A stretch of 63,140 nt of DNA, filler included, from Rhabdomonas costata (Eukaryota): the NCBI GenBank assembly GCA_019059605.1. It is 50 parts of 50 records of this genome, joined end to end, with 100 filler letters (N's around TTAATTAATTAA, not from the genome) between each part and the next. Parts side by side here need not be neighbours in the genome. Positions count along the whole stretch, not along the records: positions 48,066 to 49,230 come from JAHMHO010025476.1; positions 49,331 to 50,495 come from JAHMHO010025477.1; 48 more parts are not named here. One strand, given 5' to 3'. Below, piece after piece: positions 1,166-51,507 of the stretch. The notes under the pieces are model-generated. The model saw only the letters and a program-made list of their open reading frames with translations. It did no database searches and had not been told where the DNA came from. Position numbers and translations under genes: made by a program. The first letter of the stretch is position 1; every line of letters starts with the position of its first letter.

Positions 1166-1265
1166 NNNNNNNNNNNNNNNNNNNNNNNNNNNNNNNNNNN
1201 NNNNNNNNNTTAATTAATTAANNNNNNNNNNNNNNNNNNNNNNNNNNNNNNNNNNNNNNNNNNNN
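1166..1265. other. Artificial contig-joining spacer (N44-TTAATTAATTAA-N44); first of 49 copies spaced about 1265 nt apart
   Basis: An identical palindromic linker with stops in all six frames, flanked by Ns, recurs through to 61877-61976. Flanking contigs are unrelated and of near-equal length. ORFs ending '...XXXLIN' are artefacts of this linker. Confidence 0.98.
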
Positions 1266-2047
1266 TTTTGGTTGGAACACCTATGTCTGTCCTTCGGTAA
1301 GCGAAAGCTTCAGAAAGGCTTTAAAAGCAGGATACGGTGAATGAGTCAAGGATGATACTGCTTTAACTTGGTGCTCTGAGTGATTGCAAGTAGGGCCACG
1401 TGGTCCGAAAGTCAACAGAAAACTGTTAAGAGCCTAGCATCGGCTTAAAATTTGACGTCGCCTGGTTCGCGAATGCAGTGGCTCGAGGGCAAATCAGCAA
1501 TCCAACATTTGTCAAATGGTATGGGTCGTCCTTCATTCAGCAAGCTGATCGAGCCCACGATGCCCACCTGGCATGAAGATGCTGCCACCGTTCGGCCAGG
1601 TCAGGGCGACACCTCTGTGCACCGCAGAGATTGGAGGGGTCAAGAAGAATTACAAAATCGAGAGAGTAATGTTTGTGGGGGAGGTACACTCATCATAGAC
1701 CAAGTCGTTTGTCGCATCCCCGTGCGAACCAGACGGAGACGGACATTTCAAAAACAAGCACAGCAGATGTGAAACATATCAACACACCATTCGCCTTTGA
1801 TTGCGCACTTCTCACAAGTGCATCCGCGCGGATATTTGAAAACATAACTTCATTTCATACTTACAAAGACAATTGCACAGGTTTGCAGTCCAGAGAGGAT
1901 GAAAGAAAGTCAGCGGAAGTCAGTAGGAAGCGAACAAGCTCGAAAAGATGCACGAAAAGAAAAGACATCGCTCACATCCAACGCCTTCTTCCAACACCGC
2001 AATCATGTTTTCCCGAGAGGGGGGAGAACGAGTCCAACACCCTCACA

Positions 2048-12997: not shown

Positions 12998-14240
12998 GTG
13001 TAGCCCCCCCCCCGTCGCCCACCACTCCCCGCTGCGGCGATTGCTCTTGTACACGATAGATTTTGTTTGTAAGGCCTTCTTTTTTAATCCGAGCAAAAGT
13101 GATTGCGTGGTTGGGCCCACACGCACACGCACACGTACAACGTCATAGGCATATACACACTGTTCTAGTCTTCCCGAGAACAAAACAAAGGGAACAGCAA
13201 AAGACGGACTCACCAAGTGCGTAACCTGCGTGAAGGCAGGACAGGTTTTGCTTTCTGTCCGTCCTTGACGAGTGCATGAACATTTTTATTTCATAAACTA
13301 ATATATTTTAATGTGACGCATAATGACAAAGGGGAGCAAGACAAAATCATGAAAAACTCAATTATTCGAACCTGCTGTCTGGATACCACGCCGTTATGTA
13401 TGATACTTTGTCCCAAATCAAAGGATCAGAGTCTGCACAAGTTCAGAAACAGCGCATTCTAGTAGGCAGTCGCATCGAGCGAGGGGAAAAGGTCATCTAT
13501 GAGTAACCCGACACGTGTACAGCGGCCGGCCACAATGCAACCCCACACACCCCCACCCTTCCTGAATGCTCATGCAGATACGTATCCCTTGCTTGCCAAC
13601 GAAGGTCATCTTGTGGTCCGGTTGTCCGGCTCATTTGTGGCCGCCTGAGGCGCCTTGTACAGATGATTTCATTGCTCTTTAAATATCAGCATCAAATATG
13701 AAGGTTGCAGGGTGCATGGCTGGATTATTTCAAACTTGTCTGGAAATTCTTCCAGCCAACCCCGCATCGTATATCCCATATCTATGGTGACCTTTTGTTC
13801 TTAAAACCCACAANNNNNNNNNNNNNNNNNNNNNNNNNNNNNNNNNNNNNNNNNNNNTTAATTAATTAANNNNNNNNNNNNNNNNNNNNNNNNNNNNNNN
13901 NNNNNNNNNNNNNTGTGGGTGTGTTTGGGGTTGGTTGTCTTTCACTCAGAAGAGTTTCTTGAAGTCTCATCCAAAATCTTTTGAGGGAGGGAGGGAAGGA
14001 ATAGCATGTCGAATTCCGCAATGCTTATGGTGCATTTCTTCCAAAACGAGACAGTAATGATTTCTTTCGGAGGTGGACCTGGTCTTGTCCAAGAGAGTTC
14101 ACCCCAAACCCTCCGCAATGCGGGTTGGATCACGTGCCGCCAGGTGTGCGTGGGGTGATGTCTGGGTCAGGGTTAGAGATCTTCCCCGCTCCCTCGCCTC
14201 TTCCTCTTTGTCTCCGCCTGCTGGTTGGTGCTTTGTCAAG

Positions 14241-14329
14241 GTGGAGCTCTCCACACTGTCCTCGCCCCACCACATTGAGATCAACCCCAGCGAAGTCGGG
14301 ACCGCAGACCGGGTGGTGGTGATGACACT
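14241..14329 (+). CDS. RFC3: Replication factor C small subunit (RFC3/38 kDa type) exon
   Basis: aag|VELSTLSSPHHIEINPSEVGTADRVVVMT matches the RFC3 segment 'IEISTIASNYHLEVNPSDAGNSDRVVIQ' as I recall it. Confidence 0.75.
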
Positions 14330-15510
14330 GTGTGTGCTCTCACACATGCGCGCGCACACGTCTCTAGCTCTCTCTCTCCACTCTGGCCCCTGCTTCCTCG
14401 GCGATGTTTGTCTGCTCAACGGTTGAAAGTACAAGTTGGATGCCGGTTGTGTTGTCATTTTTGTGCGTGGATTCATTGGGGTACTCAGTATGTAGGGTGG
14501 CGCTTGGGGAACCTGCGTGCACGTCCAAAACGCACACTCGGTGAATGCGGTCTCCTTGGAGGTGCTGCTGTTGTCGTCAAAGGGCTTGTCTTCAGCCGTT
14601 GCAGCACTGTGGAGTTCAGAAACTGTAGATAACGGGTTATAAATAACGAATGTACGATCGAAGGCTCCGCTTTGGAGCATTCTCAACTCCCTGAGGAGGG
14701 AAACTCTTGCGGGTGCTGGTTGTTAAATCGGTTGTCAGCTCCACCTGTAAGACACCGCGACGTTCCTTCTGCCCAATCGGCTAAGAGTGCCCATGTTCTT
14801 GTCCTCTCCATCTCCTCATTCTGTGCCTGACTTTCCTCTGCTGTCTCAAGCCTCATCCCGTCCTCCCCACTGTGTGCGTCAACTCGTAGCAACGGAGAAA
14901 AACGCGCCACATGGTTGCTCCCGTGACCTGTTGTTCTCTCAGCATCAAGGAGATCGCGGAGTCCGCCCCGATTGAGACCCAGGGAGGAAAAGGGCATGCC
15001 GCGCTATGCTCGCACTCATTTGCACCCATACCACCCAACCGCACCCACACACATCTGGAATCACAATCCCCATAGCACNNNNNNNNNNNNNNNNNNNNNN
15101 NNNNNNNNNNNNNNNNNNNNNNTTAATTAATTAANNNNNNNNNNNNNNNNNNNNNNNNNNNNNNNNNNNNNNNNNNNNGTGGTGGGTGTGGTTGGTGTTG
15201 TTTGGGCGAATCACGGTCGCTGCACACGTTCAACTGGGTTGCTGTTTCCGAGGTTGCTTTGTTGTGAGACCGCCGGGTTGCTTTACCGGCGGTCACCTTC
15301 CTTGGCAGAAATGCCTGTTTTACCTCGCTTACTCCGACTGCTTCCAGCGGCATCGCCGGCCAGCGCACCCATGTGTGGTCTTGACTGGAGTAAAGTTACC
15401 ACCGTGTTTGCGTCCTCCTGGGAATCCTGAATCCAATCATTAGAATATTACGCGGTGACCCCGCGATCCCTGGCTCCTGCTGAGAAAGATAGGGGGGATC
15501 GGGCTCAAAG

Positions 15511-16245
15511 GTTTCTTACTGCGCGGGTGACTCACGAGAAGGGCCTGGGGGTGGAAGTCGAGGAGTGGGTCAACCGCATTCCCGTTCGGGACATTGAGGT
15601 GGGCTTATGATAGCCTTTGGGACGGCATCGGAGAGAAGCTTTAGGTTTTGGGGATTCCGTGCTGAATGGATAAGACGATTCTGTTGCTCTGTGCTTCCGA
15701 CGCCCAAGTGAATGTATGGCTTTCCAATTGAATTTGCTTTTTTTTTTGCCAATTTTTCCTTGCGTTCCATTTTCCGTTTGCAAGCCCTATTGCGGATTTT
15801 CTCCAGCCGAGGTTTTCACCACAAGGATGATAAACAGTTCTTGTTCATATAGTATGTTTGGACCATGTTTCGGGCTCTTTGATTCTCCCGCGCGTTGCGC
15901 GGTAATACCTTAATTTGGTAATTTTCTTCCGGCCCAGTTAGACGTGCGCTTTCAGTTGATTAGTGTTTTTTCGCCAAAATTTCCGTTTTGTGTCTTTTCG
16001 ATGGAAAGGCACTCCGTCATCACATCTTAAAAACGATCCCTGCGGAGGCGTTGGTATTGTTGGTGGTGGGGTTCAGGTTCCTCGGCAGGAGAACTTCAGC
16101 GACTGCGGGGTCTTCATGCTGCATTACATTGAGTTGTACTGCCTGAAGTCCTTTCGGCAGTACTTCGACGAGGATTCATCTCACCGGGTCGAGCCCCAAC
16201 CCGCACATCCGCCCCCCTGCTCGTCTGCCCAACCTTTGACCCAAG
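15511..16245 (+). CDS. Ulp1/SENP SUMO protease (peptidase C48), exons about 15511-15597 and 16077-16245
   Basis: cag|VPRQENFSDCGVFMLHYIELYC is the catalytic-Cys motif PxQxNxxDCGVF; the upstream exon ends RIPVRDIE|gt in phase 0. Confidence 0.82.
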
Positions 16246-19200
16246 GTGGAAAGGTGGGGGTCACCTATATTCCAACTCAAGCGGTGGCCTGAGGCCTGGA
16301 ACCTCCAAGAAGTGCAAAACAAACCCCAACACACCCAACANNNNNNNNNNNNNNNNNNNNNNNNNNNNNNNNNNNNNNNNNNNNTTAATTAATTAANNNN
16401 NNNNNNNNNNNNNNNNNNNNNNNNNNNNNNNNNNNNNNNNTGTTTTTTGCGAAGTGGGCCTGATTCATATGCCCATGAAGTGGACAAATATCAGCCACTA
16501 TATGGTGTACAACGTGGTATGTGCTTTGGTTGTTGTTGGCTCTGTGAACTTTGGCTTTGGTTGTTAGTGCATGTAAGTAATTTGTTGATGCCTGGGCTTT
16601 GTCGGTGTTGTGGCGTTGGATGTAAGTGAGTTTGATCTTGTTGTTGTCTTTGGATCTTGGTGTTCTGTCGTGCGCTGCTAAATGGTTGCCTGGTGAGTTA
16701 CGTGGGAGTGGATGCTTGTATTGGTTTTTTTCACGTTGTGGTCGGTGTGTGCGTGGGGTTTGATTGTGAATTGGATTTATAGATCAAACCGGGTACGCAA
16801 TTGCTAGCTGTGTTGCAGTGAATTTGGACTTTAAAGTATGCTTGTTCTATGTGCGTGTGATTTTCCGGACGAATATCGCTTCAGTGTATAGGGTAATTAC
16901 AAATATGGCTACTGTCTACTTATATTATTCTATTTACTTTTGCAACCAACATTCGATGCACTTGTTGGCCTGTTTCGTTCATTTCTGGTTAATATACATC
17001 ACCACTACCATCAGGATTACCATTTAACACTGCATGACAGGTGTGGATGGTTCTTGATTTACCACTGGCAGATTTTTATCATGTAAGGCATATACCATCA
17101 CCTATAAGTGGCTAAGTTGAGCCTTTGTCTGACATTCGAGCTTCCTACGGATGGTTTTACCGGTCAGGTCACATTAGTTAACATAGTGTCATACTTACAT
17201 CTACCCTATGCATGTGCACGGGCATGGGTAGTAGTGAATATCTGCATGTTCTAGAAAATGGTGGTTAATCGCCTTCAATAACTGGATCTATTTTGAAATA
17301 ATGTCACCATATGGATCGTTGCGTACATAGGCGCATAAAATCAGAAAGAAATATGGTACATCACCATTGGCCTTCCAACTTAGGTTTGGTCAGAATCTGT
17401 TTTCCGCGGTATATCCGATACAAATGGGCGCGTCAATGTGTCGCGTCAATGTGTTTATTGATCCCTTCTACCGGGAAAACCGGCTAATGAATAAGCTGTT
17501 CCCGCCGGGGTGCCAGGACGATGGAGCTATTCCTTGTGGACCCCGGGTGCGGCACGGCATGGCATGATGCAGGTCCATGGCGGGAAAGCGGATCCCACCA
17601 CCCCCNNNNNNNNNNNNNNNNNNNNNNNNNNNNNNNNNNNNNNNNNNNNTTAATTAATTAANNNNNNNNNNNNNNNNNNNNNNNNNNNNNNNNNNNNNNN
17701 NNNNNGGGGGGGGGTTTGTGCCTCGGCAGCTGTGTTCGATGCCGATAGGGACTAGAGTCGACGTCCTTCATGAATCGTTCCTGCCTTTTCTTCGTATGAT
17801 GGTACCCATCCCTTTGCCTTGCCTGAGAGGAAATCGGGATGCGCCTGATATACTTCTGTGCCGCTCGGGTGGCTTTTTGTCTTGCCCGGTCTCCTCGAAG
17901 TGATTTAGGCAAGACTTCATATGTAACGTGTGACCTTGTGGCATGAAAAAATTCTCATCTTTTTCAGTCCCGAGGCTGAATGAAACGTCCATTCAATTCT
18001 TAATCCTTGCCGTGGACCCGTGGACCACTATAATGCATCACTGCGTTACCTGGGCTATCAATAATAGGTGTAGCATGCCCCAAAATGGCTCTCAGCTACT
18101 CAGAAAGCCTGGTATAACTATCGTACCTCAACCCACTGCTACTGCCGCCACCACCACTATCGAACGTGAACTCCATCTCCAGCATAGAGAGCGACGCAAT
18201 TGTCCCCCCCTCGATTTACGACAGAACTCCTCAGGGAGTGAGATGACCATGCTCTGCCGGGATTTCAGTTGCAAAGTTCCAGGAGGTTTTGGGCTGCTCC
18301 GCTCCGCTGCGCTCCGACCTCAGGTTTTTTGGGGGGGTCACATTCGATAGCAATGCAAAAAAATCGCCATATGAGATGTGGTATTGTTCTTGCGCTGTGC
18401 AGATTACAGTCACCAGACTCCACTCCTCGGGACCTCTGCAGGGATCTTGACCCAAGCGCCAAACTTCCCCGCAACCCAACTTGAGCTTCGGGCTTCGCCA
18501 TTTGTGCTCGCAAACGTCCAACGCGGGCTCTCTGAATGAAGGGCAGAGTTTGCTACAAAAAGTTGCTTTCGGCGGGAATCGGGCGTTTCATCCCACTGAA
18601 AACTGTGTGATGGTTCTTCTTTCGCGCAGCCTTTTCTCTTATTAACTTGAGTTTTTTTGTTTTTCCCACAGCTTTTGCCCTTTGTGTGGGAAGGCGTGTC
18701 TCAGAGCCGTTCGTGGGGAGCTGGGCGGGTTGCTCTTAGACTGTGCTGTTGACCTCAATATTCTTTTCCCGCATCCCGTGCCGACATGTCTATGTTTGTT
18801 CGGGTCAAGCGGGAGAAGTCCACGTATTTCCTTCACTGCAGTCCTGGGGTTGCACTCCCCCCCCCCCCTCNNNNNNNNNNNNNNNNNNNNNNNNNNNNNN
18901 NNNNNNNNNNNNNNTTAATTAATTAANNNNNNNNNNNNNNNNNNNNNNNNNNNNNNNNNNNNNNNNNNNNTGTGTTGGGTGGAACCTCCTCCCGCGCAGG
19001 CTGGGCAGCCTGGGGATGAGACCCTTCCTCTCTTTCAGAAGCGCTGCTGGGAGCCTCTGGGCGGGAGTCCACCAGAGGATGCGCGCCCGTGATATACAGA
19101 AGCAGCCGCATCACTTTCGCGGCAAGGGCTTCCAGGCGGTGTTCCATCTCGCCGCACTAAAACCCATTCCCCCGAAACCAGTGTGGAGGGTTTCTGGCTA

Positions 19201-20433
19201 TTTGGAGAGTTTCAGCATATACTGAAAACGGAAACAGAGCAGCCGTAAGGATTTCAGGCAGATCCATCCGCCTGAGATCCATCCGCCTTATACGGCTGAG
19301 GCTGATGGAGTTGGGCCCAGCATCTCTAATAATGAGGGTGCGTGTAATGGCAGAAAGAGACAGATCTAGGGGGACCTTTTCATTCACAACACGAGAAAAG
19401 CCAGCGAGCAGGCGCTCCAATGATGGCCCAACGCTGCGAAGGAAGGCGTCCAAGGTCCCCAGCCTATGGTGAAGTTGTTCTGAAAGAACCTGCCAAGAAA
19501 AAAAACGTGAGGGTTGTGTGGGCGTGCGTGTTGGGTCGGTGGATGGGTGAGTGCGGAGGGCAGGTGAGCGGTTGTACGAGCACCCGTCTGGAGTACACGC
19601 TTTGAACGCTCCCCAGACTTGGTAAACTGATGCTCATTTGTGCGGCTTTCAAATTTCCGTCCGAACGGGAACGACTCTGCAGAAGTCTTGACACCGAAGG
19701 AAAGTGCCAGGGCGCGTAAATACCCGGCCTTGAACACCAAAAATAGCGATTGTTCGATCCATGATTTCGGTGGAGAACAATTTTTTTTGTTCTGTTTGCC
19801 AATTTTCCACCCACTGGTTCGAGTCCCAATGAAATTCAGGTGCGTCGACGATGCCCAGGGTTTGTAAACACAAGTGTCTTGGACTTCGGCCGCGGAACGT
19901 AAAAGAAAAATTCAGGCGACACGTACGCGGCTACCCCGTCCTGCCAAGTCGATTTATCTCATTTGTTGAGGTTTGCCCCTTTTGGACTCTGTCTTGGACA
20001 CGGGAAGGTTCCTGAACTCCGTGTGGCCTCGAACTCGGTTCTGAACTCCGTGTGGCCTCAAACTTGGAAGCTGGGGGTCGAGCGTTGAGCAGAAAAATAA
20101 CTCGGCACCCAAAGGCAGTGAATCTACACCCAACCNNNNNNNNNNNNNNNNNNNNNNNNNNNNNNNNNNNNNNNNNNNNTTAATTAATTAANNNNNNNNN
20201 NNNNNNNNNNNNNNNNNNNNNNNNNNNNNNNNNNNGGGTTGGGGTGGGTCACTTCCAAATGATTAAATGGTTCCTGTGCGGGGAGATTCCCTGCACCTGT
20301 GATGCGCGTCACCAACCGTGCCCGTGTAAAGAAGAAATAGCACATCTATGATAAGATTACCATATTAATTATGAAGCGTCCAGAAGGAGATAAAATACCT
20401 ACTGAGGTGGCGGAGAGGGTGCGGGATTTGTAC

Positions 20434-31799: not shown

Positions 31800-33010
31800 T
31801 CCCCTTGTAAACGCGGTTGCGAGATCCGTGCGTGAACTTGTCTGAATCTTCTTTTTGATCCTCTCCACTTGCCTCCCTTTTGTGGGATTGGCATTCCCAT
31901 ATGGAAATTTGGAAATGAAAAATGGTCGTTGGGTGGGCAGTTTTGGTTTGCGTGTTTTGTGAGTTTTTGTTGCGTTGGTCGCTGGATGAAAAGCATGCCA
32001 AAAATGTCCTCGATAGTTTTGGAATGTATTTGTGGCGGTGACGTAAACGGGCAGGAATATTAATAGGGCAGGTTTGGAAGGAGGAAGGATAAGATCATGA
32101 TGAATAAATGGGAATTTCCACACAACAGCTCTTCGGGGAGGGCTGTGCGCCAGATCCACTTGGGTGTCACAATGCCTCCGACCTGGCGTGACATACAAGA
32201 CCTGGTCTTGTGTTCAGGCTTTGCTCGTCGCGGTCGGAACCACCGGGAAAGTTTTCACGAAATGGGGCGTGAGAACCGCGCCACGTATTGTTGTTGTTGG
32301 CATAATGTGGGCGGAATTTAGCGGCTTGGCATATGTGACAGGGTTTGGGGGTCGTTTCTCCCACATGAGATGCAGTGGTCCTTGTGGCGCGGTGACTGCT
32401 AGGAGAAGTTATTTGCTTCGGGATTGGCCGCAGTTGCTGTGCATATGCTGTAGGCTAAGACTTCCGGGCGATTGCCGCTGTGACGCTGCCAATAAATCGC
32501 ATTTTATGATGGATTAGAACCTATTTTGAGTTTTTGCAGTTTTTGTCCTTCTTTTCCTTTATTTGGCTGATTCTCCCTGTGTGGTTTACAGGCTAGATTG
32601 AAATATCCTAACTTTTATCATTAAATTTAATAACAATAAGTCTCGCAAGCTGATACACCAACAGCCACGGCTCCCATTCCCATCCGCTGCAGACGGGCTT
32701 CCACCACAACTCTACAAAATTGAAACTTCCAGTGAATTTTCCTCAAAGCTTTTCGTGTTTCAGATTGGCCAAAANNNNNNNNNNNNNNNNNNNNNNNNNN
32801 NNNNNNNNNNNNNNNNNNTTAATTAATTAANNNNNNNNNNNNNNNNNNNNNNNNNNNNNNNNNNNNNNNNNNNNTTTGTGTCATGTGTTGTTGCATCTAA
32901 AATATAGGTGTTTTTATAAATAAATAAAACTATTTTGGAATTTTTATAATTGTATTTCATTATTTATAAAGAACAAAATTTTTTATAAATAAATAATAAG
33001 TTTGGATAAT

Positions 33011-33292
33011 TTATTTGTAACAGCAGCCCTTAGTACAGTCACAATTACAACAGTTTGTACATCTATTTATCATCGTATCATTTATTAAATTCTGATGATA
33101 TGTAAGTTGTGTTTTAAGTTCGTTGATCTCGTAGATTAAGTTATTGATCTTAATGTTAGTATTCAGATCATTAACTGAATTTAACTGTAATTTCATAGCT
33201 TCTTGTTGTTTAAAGGCTATCATTATTTTAAGGTTCTCAACTAGATCATTCATAGTGTAGTAATCCATTATATAATAACTTGAGAAAATCAT
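33011..33292 (-). CDS. Small AT-rich intronless ORF, coiled coil with Cys-rich C-terminus (virus-like)
   Basis: 93 aa, ends RCTNCCNCDCTKGCCYK; ATGA overlap with the upstream ORF. Confidence 0.6.
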   Translation of the reverse strand: MIFSSYYIMDYYTMNDLVENLKIMIAFKQQEAMKLQLNSVNDLNTNIKINNLIYEINELKTQLTYHQNLINDTMINRCTNCCNCDCTKGCCYK

Positions 33293-33546
33293 TCACGTAA
33301 AAGAATACACTTATCAATGTCATTTAAAACTGTATATATATTTCCAATATGTGAACCAATTTCATTTAATTTTTTGTATACTTCATCTAATTTATGTTCA
33401 ACATCACAAAGTTTTTCAAACACTTCTTTATACTGTTGGTCTTGAAGTGTTGGTTGATTTGTGTTTTGTTCCATTTCCAGTAATTCATGTTCAGATATCA
33501 TTTCAAAATTCATTATAAAATAGTTATACATTATAATGGTGACCAT
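33289..33546 (-). CDS. Small AT-rich intronless coiled-coil ORF (virus-like)
   Basis: 85 aa with heptads VFEKLCDVEHKLDEVYKKLNEIGSHIGNIYTVL; AT3-rich, unlike host exons. Confidence 0.6.
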   Translation of the reverse strand: MVTIIMYNYFIMNFEMISEHELLEMEQNTNQPTLQDQQYKEVFEKLCDVEHKLDEVYKKLNEIGSHIGNIYTVLNDIDKCILLRE

Positions 33547-33598
33547 TAAAGCGCGCTTGTTACACTTGAAGAAATCATCGGAACATGTTTATCAAATA

Positions 33599-34035
33599 CT
33601 AATTTACTACTGAAGACCCAGTACAAATTAAATTTCCATTTGTTCCATCCCCAACATATATAAATTCACGGCACAACCACGACGTACTATATGTTTTTGT
33701 GTCAAGTCCTTCAATTTTATTATTACTCCCTTTACACAATACAATACTAGTATTACCCATTGCACCGTTTTTATCAACTATACGGAATGTCTGGCCATTT
33801 TTATATACTCCAGACACTGAAAATGGGAATGCTGTTAATAGGGCAAAAGATCCAACAAAAAAGACTGTATTTACATAATCAGGTATAGGAGTATTTGCAT
33901 TATTTGTATCTGTAATTCTAAAACCCTGTGTGCCATAATTTGGCAACGCACTATAATAAACAAATTTATAAGTAGTATCTCTGAGTTGTTCATCAGGTTG
34001 AACAAATGTTGTTAGATCATCCTTTAAAATAAATA
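33599..34035 (-). CDS. 5'-truncated ORF, beta-rich fibre/structural-protein-like C-terminal domain
   Basis: Frame is open to the contig edge; GQTFRIVDKNGAMGNTSIVLCKGSNNKIEG...FIYVGDG resembles the 'GxxxxIxDxxG...IxG' domain of viral fibre proteins. Confidence 0.5.
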
Positions 34036-49226: not shown

Positions 49227-49334
49227 CCCCNNNNNNNNNNNNNNNNNNNNNNNNNNNNNNNNNNNNNNNNNNNNTTAATTAATTAANNNNNNNNNNNNNN
49301 NNNNNNNNNNNNNNNNNNNNNNNNNNNNNNGTGG

Positions 49335-49412
49335 TGTGGTTATATGATTGATGACAAAGTATATACAAGTGACGATCATAAAAGAAAATTTCTAAAACAT
49401 GTTCTTTATTAA
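49335..49412 (+). CDS. C-terminus of an AT-rich ORF converging on the ATPase
   Basis: CGYMIDDKVYTSDDHKRKFLKHVLY*; truncated at the contig edge. Confidence 0.4.
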   Translation, partial: CGYMIDDKVYTSDDHKRKFLKHVLY

Positions 49413-49441
49413 ATAAATATTTTTTGTATAAAAATATTTAT
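49413..49441. terminator. AT-rich hairpin between convergent stop codons (12-bp stem, 5-nt loop)
   Basis: ataaatattttt-tgtat-aaaaatatttat; the terminator function is inferred. Confidence 0.5.
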
Positions 49442-50109
49442 CTTTTTGCATAAGGTATTACCTCAAAAATATTTTTACGCAATCTCGCATATGGTCTTGA
49501 TTTGTCTATAATTAATGAATCATGAAATTCAGTACAAATATTATCAAAAATATATTTTAAATCCTTACTTGTTAATCCTATTTTTCTTGACAATTCAGCC
49601 ATACTGTCAGCATCTCCATTATTCCACAATATTATGATGTTTGCTAATCGTCGAACTCGAGCAGGACAACTGAAAGGATCCTGAAAAGTAGACCAGACAG
49701 ATATATTATGGTGGGTAGACCAACAGCCATATGTTCTATCAACACGGGCTAATTGATCGCGTTTCATATCTTTAAACGAAACATCTTCAAGTATAAGTAA
49801 ATTTTTTTGGGTCTTGTCCCAGAACTCTAAGGGTGGTACATTATCAATGTACTCAGCGTCTATATCTGAATATTCTTCACTTTCTGGGTCATTATGATAT
49901 ATTACAATTCGATCAAAGGGGGGGAATGCATGCATCGCTAAATTGACTAGCGTTAGACTTTTACCTGTGTTACACGGCCCGCAGGCAATGATTCGGCTTG
50001 GATGAGCCATATGTCCCAAGTCATCTTGTTTGGGGGTTTCATGAAATTCTTTGTCCTTGTTGGGAATGACAACAAGTTTATTAGGTAACTTAAATTTATT
50101 TTTCACCAT
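49438..50109 (-). CDS. A32/FtsK-HerA-type DNA-packaging ATPase of Polinton-like virus/virophage type
   Basis: Intronless, 223 aa, AT-rich. Walker A RIIACGPCNTGKS; Walker B LLILED; H-x-NISV-x4-Q (sensor) followed by P..VRRLAN; C-terminal SLIID...LRKN. Confidence 0.85.
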   Translation of the reverse strand: MVKNKFKLPNKLVVIPNKDKEFHETPKQDDLGHMAHPSRIIACGPCNTGKSLTLVNLAMHAFPPFDRIVIYHNDPESEEYSDIDAEYIDNVPPLEFWDKTQKNLLILEDVSFKDMKRDQLARVDRTYGCWSTHHNISVWSTFQDPFSCPARVRRLANIIILWNNGDADSMAELSRKIGLTSKDLKYIFDNICTEFHDSLIIDKSRPYARLRKNIFEVIPYAKR

Positions 50110-50164
50110 TTATATAATATTATTATATTATTATAATATTATTTTTTCTCACATTAAATTATAA
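50110..50164. promoter_or_regulatory. Putative bidirectional AT-rich promoter
   Basis: 55-nt, almost pure A/T spacer with repeated ataatattat; both divergent genes start at TATAAATG. Confidence 0.45.
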
Positions 50165-50495
50165 ATGACATCACGAAGTGGTGAAACAATGTATAAAACA
50201 AAAGGAAAAGAACGTGCTGAAGAATCAGAAGAACCAAAACAACCAAAACAACCAAAGAAAAGAGGAAGACCTAAAAAAAGAACAGAATCAGAAATAGTTC
50301 AATTTTCAGATCAAACATTAACTACAGCACCTACTGCTTCATCTTCAATGGAAGTTGAAATAACACCATCAGCTCTTCCACCAGCAAAAGTTCCATATGC
50401 GAAACCTGAATTGAAAGGAGAAGTTCGTAAGAAATGGGTTGCATTTTCTAAAACTGTTAAAAATTGGGCAACTATAAGTAAAACAACACCTCAAG
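50165..50495 (+). CDS. Basic protein with an AT-hook-like motif, 3'-truncated (virus-like)
   Basis: PKQPKQPKKRGRPKKR; intronless, AT3-rich, divergent from the ATPase. Confidence 0.6.
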
Positions 50496-50683: not shown

Positions 50684-51507
50684 GAGGAAGACTTGGCCCA
50701 GAAAGGGACTTATGAAACGGTGACGTTCAAGCTTCCAGACGGGCAGGTCCTCACCGTGGGGCCGGAGCGCTTTCGTGCACCGGAAATTCTGTTCAACCCG
50801 ATGGTTGTGGGATCAGAGTACGAGCCTGTGCAGGAGGTGGGACAGCTGTACTCCGTTCCCCCCTCCCCCTTCTCTCTCTCTCTCTTTCTCTCGCCGCCGC
50901 CGCTCCCGCACTCTCTTTTTTTTTGGCAGATAACAAAGGTTAATTTGAAGGTGAACTTTTATTTCCATATTTCCTCGACTTTCCCTCTGCTCTTGCTCCT
51001 TTGCGGAACAAGAACAATGCAGAGAACTTGGGGAAAGGTGAAGTGGAAGTTGTTTGTTCAGCAACCTCGGTTATGGCTTTGGGAGGGGGGCCAAAGTCGC
51101 AGTTAGGCTTAAAATAGCTTAAGCGTTCAGTTGACGGCTGAGGCCGTGTTTGCGGAAGGCAATTGCAAGCTGCAGCATCTTCAATCGTGCCTCATTATCT
51201 GACCAGACAAGCACTGGCGGATCCTCATCCCACATATACGCGTTAGCTGGTGGTTTTCGGTTGCAACCAGCCGTGTGGGCTTTTCCCATCTGTTTCTTGT
51301 CAAATATTCGACGCCGCCACTGAAATATAGGTCCTTCAATCATCCCACTGACTCATTTGATGAGGATATCATCTTTCACCTTCAAAGGTTTTGATGAACT
51401 GCATACGCAAGTGCGACACGGACACGCGTAAGCACTTGTACTCGTCGATTCACTTGGTTGGAGGAACGACGCTGTTGTCCGGCTTTGCAGACCGTTTGCT
51501 AGCAGAG
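50684..51507 (+). CDS. ACTR1: Actin-related protein, Arp1/centractin-like, exons 50684-50836 and 51388-51507
   Basis: [25 protein letters not shown]...[49 protein letters not shown] and DRLLxE favour Arp1 over conventional actin. Confidence 0.75.

Follow-up and report, generated by a model that had tools for sequence, protein, structure and literature searches.

We identified, in the genome assembly of the protist Rhabdomonas costata (GCA_019059605.1), a short contig that very probably derives from that part of a Polinton-like virus genome (PLV; phylum Preplasmiviricota, realm Varidnaviria) which encodes virion morphogenesis. The window that we analyzed is a stretch of 63,140 nucleotides in which 50 contigs of about 1165 bp each are separated by spacers (N44, TTAATTAATTAA, N44), and the putative PLV genome fragment occupies one whole contig (49331..50495, unstranded; 1165 bp). 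The 3' end of one gene, a complete ATPase gene and the 5' start of a third gene take up 1084 of its 1165 bases (93% coding), and all three can be read without any intron. Its GC content of 32.6% is the second lowest among the 50 window contigs, after 27.8% at 32875-34035; the third lowest is 41.0%, and most contigs lie between 47% and 60%. A preliminary description of this DNA had depicted the contig as AT-rich, intronless and tightly packed, and these values bear it out. Proteins of 36 related loci found no match (tblastn) on any window contig besides 49331-50495. A search of the window against Rfam returned no match, and the contig's own 1165 bases hold nothing bearing on integration. The other AT-rich contig of the window, at 32875-34035, has no protein in common with any of the 36 related loci.

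The central gene (49438..50109, minus strand) runs from ATG to stop and encodes an intact 223-aa protein that profiles and a fold model place among the A32-like/FtsK-HerA genome-packaging ATPases. At the base composition of the contig, the chance of an open frame of 223 codons is approximately 1.9e-8. Read directly from the sequence are a Walker A motif, GPCNTGKS (residues 44-51; 49957..49980, minus strand), and a Walker B motif, LLILED (residues 104-109; 49783..49800, minus strand). Across 66 family members, K50 of Walker A is invariant and G49 is at least 90% conserved; in Walker B, the A1 set shows invariant L104 and D109 with at least 90% conservation of E108, and D109 is at least 90% conserved in A2. 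Conservation in the 66 members also defines a family signature, STHHNISVWSTFQ (residues 131-143; 49681..49719, minus strand), that begins with STHH (residues 131-134) and ends in a conserved polar Q (residue 143). The complete P-loop ATPase, its two Walker motifs and the downstream Q were therefore all found as the preliminary description had reported them. That description expected a G-R-H motif after Walker B and regarded the S-T-H found here as a divergent variant; S-T-H is instead the norm of this family, since H133 is invariant and S131, together with S137 and Q143, is at least 90% conserved in the 66 diverse members. Compared with three relatives at approximately 74% nucleotide identity, pN is 0.13-0.15 and pS, which is saturated, is 0.72-0.78. 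The ATPase gene is intact and under strong purifying selection.

The window ATPase belongs to no Pfam family (the best match, to CbiA, has an E-value of 0.074 and lies under its cut-off), and phmmer against PDB sequences gave nothing below E 0.17, so that its assignment to a family draws on transitive profile evidence and predicted structure. Searched with the window protein itself, the Pox_A32 profile (PF04665) gave no match even at E<=10, and PHROGs offered a terminase large subunit at E 0.022 only. Among the 66 family members, 38 match Pox_A32 at E<=0.01 (best 6.5e-11), and the ATPase of one relative, L035, scores 28.0 bits, over the curated cut-off of 22.8. The Pox_A32 comparison that the preliminary description proposed thus came out positive for the family, with the window protein joined to it transitively. 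The A2 profile, compared with PDB sequences, matched the B204 packaging NTPases of STIV2 (4.4e-6; profile positions 41-203 on chain positions 8-193) and STIV (1.8e-5), ranked behind two long cellular proteins that match around the P-loop only. On this transitive sequence and model evidence, the window ATPase is assigned to the A32-like/FtsK-HerA packaging ATPases.

Relatives of the ATPase are numerous in public data. A word-indexed search returned 30 relatives, with 74-83% identity in 13 of the 30 rows, and a search of 1.84 billion representatives with the A1 profile gave 2732 clusters (clustered at 50% identity) at E<=1e-3, of which 281 reach E<=1e-30. No informative name is attached to the protein clusters. 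The earlier hint of a novel system does not survive this count. No ATPase relative was found among 185,579 prokaryote species genomes searched with two peptide patterns or, by tblastn, among 50,697 phage records. Queries of IMG/VR with the A1 patterns, the A3 pattern, the PLA2X protein of L006 and the window ATPase did not find the window's clade.

The AlphaFold model of the ATPase (pLDDT 78.2, pTM 0.80) points in the same direction. Its best PDB match by Foldseek is B204 (3.1e-5), and VIA-align gave Z scores of 13.3 for TcpA, 12.5 for EccC, 12.2 for B204 (rmsd 3.1 over 162 residues), 12.1 for HerA and 11.7 for FtsK. The cellular proteins matched by fold are much longer and belong to the same FtsK-HerA superfamily. 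Against BFVD, the model had 100 matches at E<=0.001, headed by A32-like and packaging ATPases. Giant-virus A32-like proteins matched at 4e-8 to 1e-6 (top: Klosneuvirus, 4.3e-8, and a Medusavirus A32-like protein, 1.3e-7), an adintovirus FtsK-like protein was second overall (6.3e-8), and the virophage matches were the packaging ATPase of Yellowstone Lake virophage 5 (YSLV5; 6.3e-7), Sputnik V3 (8.2e-7) and the mavirus ATPase (3.1e-5). Profile and fold both point to viral A32-like/FtsK-HerA proteins, and not to the cellular or bacterial best matches that the preliminary description had named as evidence against its proposal. Like the A32-like ATPases and B204, the protein is a single-domain P-loop ATPase of approximately 200-250 aa with both Walker motifs and, beyond the sensor strand, a conserved polar Q. 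Unlike B204, the window's family has an N-terminal extension of approximately 35 residues, with a conserved N-x-D-K-x-F-H-E, which is modelled at low confidence.

These likenesses suggest how the protein might act. By analogy with double jelly-roll capsid viruses, the A32-like ATPase would dock at a capsid vertex, and its presumed packaging activity would hydrolyse ATP to drive the linear dsDNA genome into a procapsid that is already formed and lined with membrane. The predicted hydrolysis residues are K50 of Walker A and E108/D109 of Walker B; the polar Q143 and probably R153/R154 would serve as sensor and arginine finger. Both R153 and Q143 are at least 90% conserved across the 66 members.

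Converging on the ATPase gene are the last 26 codons and stop (WCGYMIDDKVYTSDDHKRKFLKHVLY, then stop; 49332..49412, plus strand) of a PLA2X-like virion protein whose PLA2 domain lies off the contig, as judged from translation and tblastn. The tblastn matches are to L002:1573-1881 (E 4.7e-6) and L007:531-1247 (4.5e-5), and the C-terminus, of the form KR.FLKRVLY directly before the stop, is shared with L002, L006 and L007. The full-length PLA2-like proteins of L006 and L007 match PF08398 at 3.2e-9 and 1.2e-8, and Adeno_PX at 0.015 and 0.19, the latter two scoring far under the Pfam cut-off of 25 bits. YLGPG and HD..Y, which we take to be parvovirus-like PLA2 motifs, are visible in the L006 protein, and its tail is basic and glycine-rich. 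The converging gene would encode a virion protein with a parvovirus-type PLA2 domain; by analogy, this protein would travel in the particle and breach the endosomal membrane when the virus enters a cell.

On the other side, the ATPase gene is separated from a divergent neighbour by an AT-rich intergenic region of 55 bp (50110..50164, unstranded), with TATAA/TAAATG-type sequence ahead of both start codons. The neighbour (50165..50495, plus strand), recognized as an ORF with a homologue in L002, encodes a basic, low-complexity protein, of which the contig includes 110 codons from the start before it ends; we read KKRGRPKKR, at residues 31-39 (50255-50281), as an AT-hook-like motif. No Pfam family matches it, and searches recovered a single homologue, at L002:1-510, which likewise diverges from the ATPase gene (tblastn E 1.9e-6; 29% identity across 147 columns).

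The gene order of PLA2X end, ATPase and basic protein recurs in L002 and in metagenome contigs with ATPases 74-83% identical to that of the window. In L006 and L007, whose ATPases are 81-82% identical, the PLA2-like gene is followed by a penton-like gene. Together with the window contig, L001-L007 and L019 form the window's clade (ATPase identity 67-83%), which received an SH-aLRT value of 100 in an ATPase tree from a quick search that used neither bootstrap nor named references. No recorded contig of this clade is longer than 11.6 kb. Two close relatives carry broken ATPase genes, with one in-frame stop in L001 and a frameshift in L019.

A single jelly-roll penton gene, not present on the window contig, lies at L020:3335-4180 and has homologues in L006, L007, L022 and L031-L036. 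A model of the family (pLDDT 81.9) gave Z scores of 12.9 to the PBCV-1 penton, 11.7 to an adenovirus capsid chain, 10.5 to the mavirus penton (6g41) and 9.4 to a Sputnik chain (3j26_N), and in BFVD its best named match comes from a PLV, Tetraselmis viridis virus S1 (TVS1; 9.1e-14). Judged by its modelled fold, the penton-like family of the relatives is a true penton. The Atlas clusters nearest to it carry mostly Nucleocytoviricota labels. The preliminary description proposed to look for capsid genes among contigs of similar composition; in relatives of the ATPase, such genes, in the form of the penton, do adjoin it on small virus-sized contigs.

Relatives also encode a candidate capsid protein (family A5) of 519-571 aa, with 45-49% identity to the first member, which is found in L025 as well (3e-40). 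Searches with this family gave no Pfam or PDB sequence match, save for one of five members against Capsid_N at E 0.1. Neither the window nor any contig of its clade showed a major capsid protein. A search for one among further ORFs of the metagenome loci yielded no recognizable capsid gene: the 655-aa ORF beside the penton gene of L006 is unlike A5 (hhalign probability 0.2%), the large ORF of L024 is unrelated to A5 by hhalign, and the gene of 370 aa that follows the ATPase in L020 is an orphan whose search returned itself alone. The 655-aa ORF of L006, a 732-aa ORF of L024 and a 410-aa ORF of L025 had no match among PDB sequences, and the Atlas gave the L006 ORF weak discoidin-like leads only (score 0.83, poor model).

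The wider gene content was drawn from five IMG/VR contigs of 7.4-33.5 kb that were reached via the penton and hold 75 ORFs. The ATPase family is present in four of the five (1e-86 to 1e-99), and the fifth ends before the expected place. These contigs also carry the PLA2-like gene and the candidate capsid protein, along with D5-type or Prim-Pol primase-helicases, GIY-YIG nucleases, DNA methylases and a fibre protein; one of them, L035, has a tyrosine recombinase. Pfam families detected in the 75 ORFs include D5_N, DUF5906/VapE-like, Prim-Pol and Phage_integrase; a literature search on DUF5901 found no paper. None of the 75 ORFs matched pPolB, an RVE integrase or a cysteine/Ulp1-type protease at E<=1e-3, and neither pPolB nor an RVE integrase was found among the scanned ORFs of L006, L017, L020, L024 and L025. 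The ATPases of these full-context contigs are just 33-47% identical to that of the window and lie across the midpoint root of the quick tree, which has no bootstrap; by analogy, the rest of the genome of the window's clade presumably resembles theirs.

PLV genomes are roughly 14-40 kb in size. Contigs carrying the ATPase or penton family top out at approximately 20-33 kb over hundreds of records, and lengths near 21 kb (21,232, 21,357 and 21,914) recur. The relatives resemble PLVs possibly in contig size, in their module of ATPase, penton and candidate capsid protein, which is like that of TVS1 and the PgVV group in the accessible text of PMC4642659, and in having a primase-helicase, a GIY-YIG nuclease, Dam/Dcm-type methylases, a lipase-type entry protein and a tyrosine recombinase. 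The PLV gene list in that part of PMC4642659 agrees with the gene set of the relatives. They differ from the PLVs described there in that the lipase is a parvovirus-type PLA2 encoded beside the penton; in the same text, PLA2-type lipases are noted in some polintons. In the available portion of a 2026 preprint on 2,355 marine PLVs, a single PLA2-like enzyme is counted among auxiliary metabolic genes (10.64898/2026.05.28.728513), and PLA2-type genes may already be present in published supplementary tables of PLV genes.

The lipase bears on a different origin, in which the contig would derive from a polinton/Maverick or adintovirus-like element that encodes pPolB and a retroviral-type integrase and is resident in the host genome. 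A PLA2 domain with a weak adenovirus pX-like tail corresponds to the PLA2X architecture, which is described in adintoviruses in the accessible part of PMC8502044 (see also the consulted part of PMC4642659). The points of likeness are the N-terminal parvovirus-like PLA2 of L006, the basic, glycine-rich tail with its faint, sub-threshold pX-like signal, and encoding in the virion module beside the packaging ATPase; of this gene, the window has 26 C-terminal codons only. The second rank of the adintovirus FtsK-like protein in BFVD and the broken ATPase genes of L001 and L019, which would be expected of decaying genomic copies, fit the same origin. However, the Adeno_PX matches of L006 and L007 fall far under the cut-off, and the breaks in L001 and L019 may be sequencing errors. 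Unlike adintoviruses and polintons, the related genomes have no pPolB or RVE integrase, and no Ulp1-like protease, in their 75 ORFs, which hold primase-helicases and one tyrosine recombinase instead. We consider a polinton or adintovirus origin improbable.

We judge it highly improbable that the contig comes from a strict virophage (Maveriviricetes/Lavidaviridae-type), that is, one that multiplies nowhere but in the factory of a giant virus infecting the same cell. The ATPase model does match those of YSLV5, Sputnik V3 and mavirus, and pentons of mavirus and Sputnik are among the matches of the penton model, but the highest-ranking named match of the penton comes from TVS1, a PLV, and not from a virophage, and the cysteine protease is absent from the 75 ORFs of the five related contigs. 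TTCTA occurs at -18 to -20 in 5 of 16 distinct upstream regions of the window's close clade, against a background of 5.3% of 40-nt windows, although the count is small, the background is AT-rich, and the window's own 55-bp intergenic region contains no TCTA. In the sections available to us, TCTA is reported to form the core of late promoters in CroV-like giant viruses (PMC13196603), and Sputnik and mavirus reportedly use the late promoter of their giant virus (10.1101/2022.07.28.501842). The mimivirus early motif AAAATTGA showed no consistent placement upstream of genes. The preliminary description left the choice between a PLV and a virophage open. The primase-helicase set, the TVS1 penton match and the lack of a cysteine protease in the 75 ORFs favour the PLV part of that proposal over the strict virophage part. 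Because some PLVs also act as virophages, the lifestyle of the element has to be kept apart from its taxonomy.

An origin from a giant virus (Nucleocytoviricota), whether as an integrated copy or as an infection of the culture, would be in line with the Klosneuvirus and Medusavirus proteins among the top BFVD matches of the ATPase model, the Nucleocytoviricota labels of most of the Atlas clusters nearest to the penton, the origin of one related contig (L032) from a giant-virus metagenome bin, and the presence in the window of a further AT-rich contig of unknown origin (32875-34035). Against this, the family's contigs stay within the sizes given above and hold a compact, complete-looking set of virion and replication genes, and the contig at 32875-34035 has no protein in common with the related loci. 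Binning can also wrongly group small contigs of PLVs with giant viruses. A giant virus is, in our estimation, a remote prospect. Hardly any credence attaches to a contaminant cellular, bacterial or plasmid P-loop ATPase with no part in virus packaging: the lack of a Pfam family, the weak CbiA/ParA-type best match and the fold matches to the conjugative coupling/secretion ATPases TcpA and EccC could be read in its favour, but those much longer proteins belong to the same superfamily, 38 of the 66 members match Pox_A32, no relative was found in the prokaryote genomes or phage records searched, and the relatives adjoin penton and PLA2-like genes on virus-sized contigs.

The contig is thus best read as part of a PLV. 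PLVs abound as parasites of protists, and some insert into the genome of the host and dampen infection by giant viruses. Finding a piece of a PLV in the assembly of a protist is accordingly a hint of either a virus paired with its host or an antiviral element that resides there. Taken alone, the contig is one more member of a family with thousands of known clusters, real yet fairly ordinary, since it is well established that the PLV group is very common. Only evidence from the full assembly that it is integrated into a host without a known PLV would make it more valuable. A more ambitious proposal, which we regard as unlikely, is that the window contig, L001-L007 and L019 represent an undescribed PLV lineage, absent from the IMG/VR scans and with a capsid unrecognisable from its sister lineage, that is resident in the protist genome beside intact and decaying copies elsewhere and is switched on by giant viruses via a TCTA-type late promoter, so defending the host in the manner of a virophage and using a packaged PLA2 to get into cells. 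Among the relatives, penton and ATPase genes of this PLV lineage are regularly accompanied by a gene for a parvovirus-type PLA2 protein, which supports the idea of a lipase carried for entry. As for the host, the contig adjoining 49331-50495 in the window carries an actin fragment (PF00022, E 1.9e-9), in keeping with a eukaryotic host.

We consider it very probable that the contig at 49331-50495 is a genuine piece of a polinton-like virus (PLV) genome, with an intact, constrained A32-like packaging ATPase. The window contains 50 contigs of about 1165 bp each, representing several loci rather than one, and artificial spacers (N44, TTAATTAATTAA and N44) lie at all contig joints (e.g. 49231-49330); contigs that adjoin in the window are therefore not genomic neighbours. 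The GC content of the PLV contig, 32.6%, is the second lowest of the 50 (minimum 27.8%, next above 41.0%, most 47-60%). By translation, three genes occupy 1084 of its 1165 bases and require no introns: the 3' end (26 codons and stop) of a plus-strand gene whose start lies off the contig (49332-49412), a complete 223-codon ATPase ORF on the minus strand (49438-50109) and, beyond a 55-bp AT-rich spacer (50110-50164), the first 110 codons of a plus-strand gene truncated by the contig end (50165-50495). Both contig ends fall within viral genes, and the chance probability of a 223-codon open frame at this base composition is approximately 1.9e-8. These figures bear out the preliminary description of an AT-rich, tightly packed, intronless contig with a complete 223-aa ORF, and the ATPase motifs that it listed are present (GPCNTGKS, residues 44-51; LLILED, 104-109; STHH, 131-134; Q143).

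Searches with the ATPase sequence itself returned nothing above noise in Pfam (top match CbiA, E 0.074), no match among PDB sequences using phmmer, and a weak terminase match alone in PHROGs (E 0.022). A word-indexed search yielded 30 relatives, with 74-83% identity in 13 of the 30 rows, none of which carries a name or a Pfam domain. A profile built from 18 relatives and searched against 1.84 billion representatives matched 2732 clusters at E<=1e-3, 740 at E<=1e-10 and 281 at E<=1e-30; the window ATPase adds one new member to a very large known family. The proposed profile check against Pox_A32 was positive at the level of the family, with 38 of 66 diverse members scanned singly matching at E<=0.01 (best 6.5e-11), and generic AAA was the next most frequent Pfam family (18/66). 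Against the PDB, the family profile matched the packaging NTPase B204 of STIV2 (4.4e-6; profile 41-203, chain 8-193) and of STIV (1.8e-5), while the two rows scoring above B204 are long cellular proteins aligned around the P-loop only.

The alignment-based AlphaFold model of the window ATPase (pLDDT 78.2, pTM 0.80) had 100 matches at E<=0.001 among predicted viral structures. Giant-virus A32-like ATPases were among the leaders, together with an adintovirus FtsK-like protein (6.3e-8) and the packaging ATPases of Yellowstone Lake virophage 5 (6.3e-7) and Sputnik V3 (8.2e-7); the mavirus ATPase also matched (3.1e-5). Foldseek placed B204 first among solved structures (3.1e-5), and an independent all-against-all structure alignment gave Z scores of 13.3 for TcpA, 12.5 for EccC, 12.2 for B204, 12.1 for HerA and 11.7 for FtsK, with the B204 alignment covering nearly the whole chain (rmsd 3.1 over 162 residues). 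As modelled, the protein belongs to the FtsK-HerA superfamily, and its best full-length match is to small viral packaging enzymes.

Across the 66-member alignment, K50 and H133 never vary, and conservation reaches at least 90% at G49, D109, S131, S137, Q143 and R153, which supports an active enzyme. STH is therefore the family norm, and its earlier reading as a divergent variant of this copy is refuted. Compared with three relatives that share about 74% of its nucleotides, the gene shows saturation at synonymous sites (pS 0.72-0.78) and a pN of 0.13-0.15; it has evolved under strong purifying selection. An N-terminal motif conserved in the family, P-N-x-D-K-x-F-H-E (residues 10-31; K20 invariant, D19 at least 90% conserved), precedes the P-loop domain; residues 18-31 are modelled with pLDDT under 50, and the motif is missing from the B204 alignment. 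Two close relatives have damaged ATPase genes, one with a single in-frame stop where others have Glu (L001:367-1038) and one with a frameshift that loses the frame after about residue 126 (L019:664-1340); these could be decaying genomic copies or sequencing errors.

We retrieved 30 metagenome contigs encoding ATPase relatives and clustered all of their ORFs. The 26-codon fragment at 49332-49412 matches the C-termini of L002:1573-1881 (tblastn E 4.7e-6) and L007:531-1247 (4.5e-5), and shares the ending KR.FLKRVLY* with L006:489-1223; in all three contigs this gene and the ATPase are convergent, as they are here. Full-length, the proteins of L006 and L007 contain Phospholip_A2_4, the Pfam parvovirus VP1-type phospholipase A2 (PLA2) domain (3.2e-9 and 1.2e-8), with faint Adeno_PX matches far under that family's cut-off (0.015 and 0.19). 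The L006 protein also has YLGPG and HDIAY, which we take to be the calcium-loop and catalytic motifs of parvoviral PLA2. This PLA2 and Adeno_PX architecture is named PLA2X in adintoviruses, according to excerpts of PMC8502044, and excerpts of PMC4642659 describe PLA2-type lipases in some polintons and propose that they are packaged for entry. Only one homologue of the right-hand gene (50165-50495) was detected, at the corresponding place in L002 (29% identity, E 1.9e-6). The product of the right-hand gene, a basic protein of low complexity, includes KKRGRPKKR, presumably an AT-hook.

Adjoining the PLA2-like gene in L006, L007, L020 and L022 is a gene for a protein of about 220-280 aa, whose family numbers 395 proteins at E<=1e-3 on contigs reaching about 22 kb. 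Its model (pLDDT 81.9) gave Z scores of 12.9 with the PBCV-1 penton, 11.7 with an adenovirus capsid chain, 10.5 with the crystal structure of the mavirus penton and 9.4 with a chain of Sputnik, ahead of the first unrelated folds (7.7 and below). The top named match among predicted viral structures was a protein of the PLV Tetraselmis viridis virus S1 (9.1e-14), followed by minor capsid/penton proteins of giant viruses, MELD viruses, adomaviruses and mavirus. On these structural predictions the protein is a penton protein. In the close relative L006, two overlapping frames (1247-1480 and 1374-2033) together make up the penton-like gene (1247-2033, minus strand), which suggests a frameshift or assembly error.

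The penton alignment recovered five IMG/VR contigs of 7.4-33.5 kb. All five have genes for the penton and for a conserved 519-571-aa protein, and four carry the ATPase family (hmmsearch 1e-86 to 1e-99; 33-47% identity to the window ATPase), the fifth ending before the expected site. The 519-571-aa protein is our candidate for, and likely to be, the major capsid protein, with a putative double jelly-roll fold; Pfam and PDB sequence searches of this family gave no match, with Capsid_N at E 0.1 in one of the five members. The PLA2-like proteins of L031, L032 and L034 match PF08398, and the L033 homologue matches the L020 PLA2-like protein (BLAST 1.3e-44) without a Pfam family. Scattered on these contigs are primase-helicases of the D5, DUF5906/VapE and Prim-Pol types, GIY-YIG nucleases, N6/N4 and C5 DNA methylases, a fibre with an endosialidase-chaperone domain, a collagen-repeat protein and a Bro-N protein. 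L035 also encodes a tyrosine recombinase, of which L020 has a homologue, and some relatives could thus integrate. Protein-primed polymerase, RVE integrase and cysteine protease were found in none of the 75 ORFs scanned on the five contigs. This is the gene set of PLVs as described in excerpts of the 2015 paper (PMC4642659), and it differs from those of polintons and virophages. Clusters around the penton- and ATPase-associated proteins recur on contigs of 21,232, 21,357 and 21,914 bp, suggesting genomes of about 21 kb. The 33.5-kb contig (L035/L036) is partly palindromic, with a four-gene block repeated in inverted orientation (13198-16347 and 17152-20301) that could reflect misassembly or a pair of long inverted repeats.

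A quick tree, with no bootstrap and no named references, joins the window ATPase to four close relatives (SH-aLRT 100); a second clade, of short contigs only, is sister to this group (SH-aLRT 88), and the full-context contigs lie across the midpoint root. Scans of the IMG/VR copy with alignment patterns, the L006 PLA2X and the window ATPase did not recover the window clade. Since no capsid candidate was seen in this clade and the full-context contigs lie across the root, its PLV assignment rests on the shared ATPase-PLA2-penton module and not on a complete genome. A 655-aa ORF beside the L006 penton gene, considered as a member of the candidate capsid family, proved unrelated, and its Atlas model was poor. 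The earlier claim of a viral element, which may be integrated or free, holds as a PLV fragment, with an ATPase that is A32-like in fold and profile, relatives beside PLA2-like and penton genes, and related contigs with the gene set of a PLV rather than of a virophage or polinton. The host link is the sole potentially valuable aspect of the contig.

Among 69 genes from the window and the metagenome loci, TATAWA occurs within 18 nt of the ATG in 37 and TAAATG at the start in 16, and both window start regions, in the spacer at 50110-50164, have such sequences. TATATA is 6- to 14-fold enriched upstream relative to background windows, and a promoter element so near the start codon resembles a viral-type promoter more than one for host Pol II. 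Of 16 distinct upstream regions in the close clade, five carry TTCTA at -18 to -20, a motif seen in 5.3% of background windows and absent from the window's own spacer. Excerpts of PMC13196603 give TCTA as the core of late promoters in CroV-like giant viruses, and Sputnik and mavirus rely on their giant virus's late promoter according to excerpts of 10.1101/2022.07.28.501842; the placement of TTCTA would point to a virophage-like lifestyle, as a lead and no more.

The other 49 window contigs had no match to the proteins of the 36 related loci. The AT-richest of the 50 (32875-34035, 27.8% GC) has tandem small minus-strand ORFs of 115, 85 and 93 aa, the last with a cysteine-rich tail; with no Pfam family and no similarity to proteins of those loci, it could be another virus, organelle or contaminant. 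The contig following the PLV contig contains an actin fragment (50693-50890; PF00022, E 1.9e-9) that stops at an apparent exon boundary, which fits a eukaryotic host assembly.
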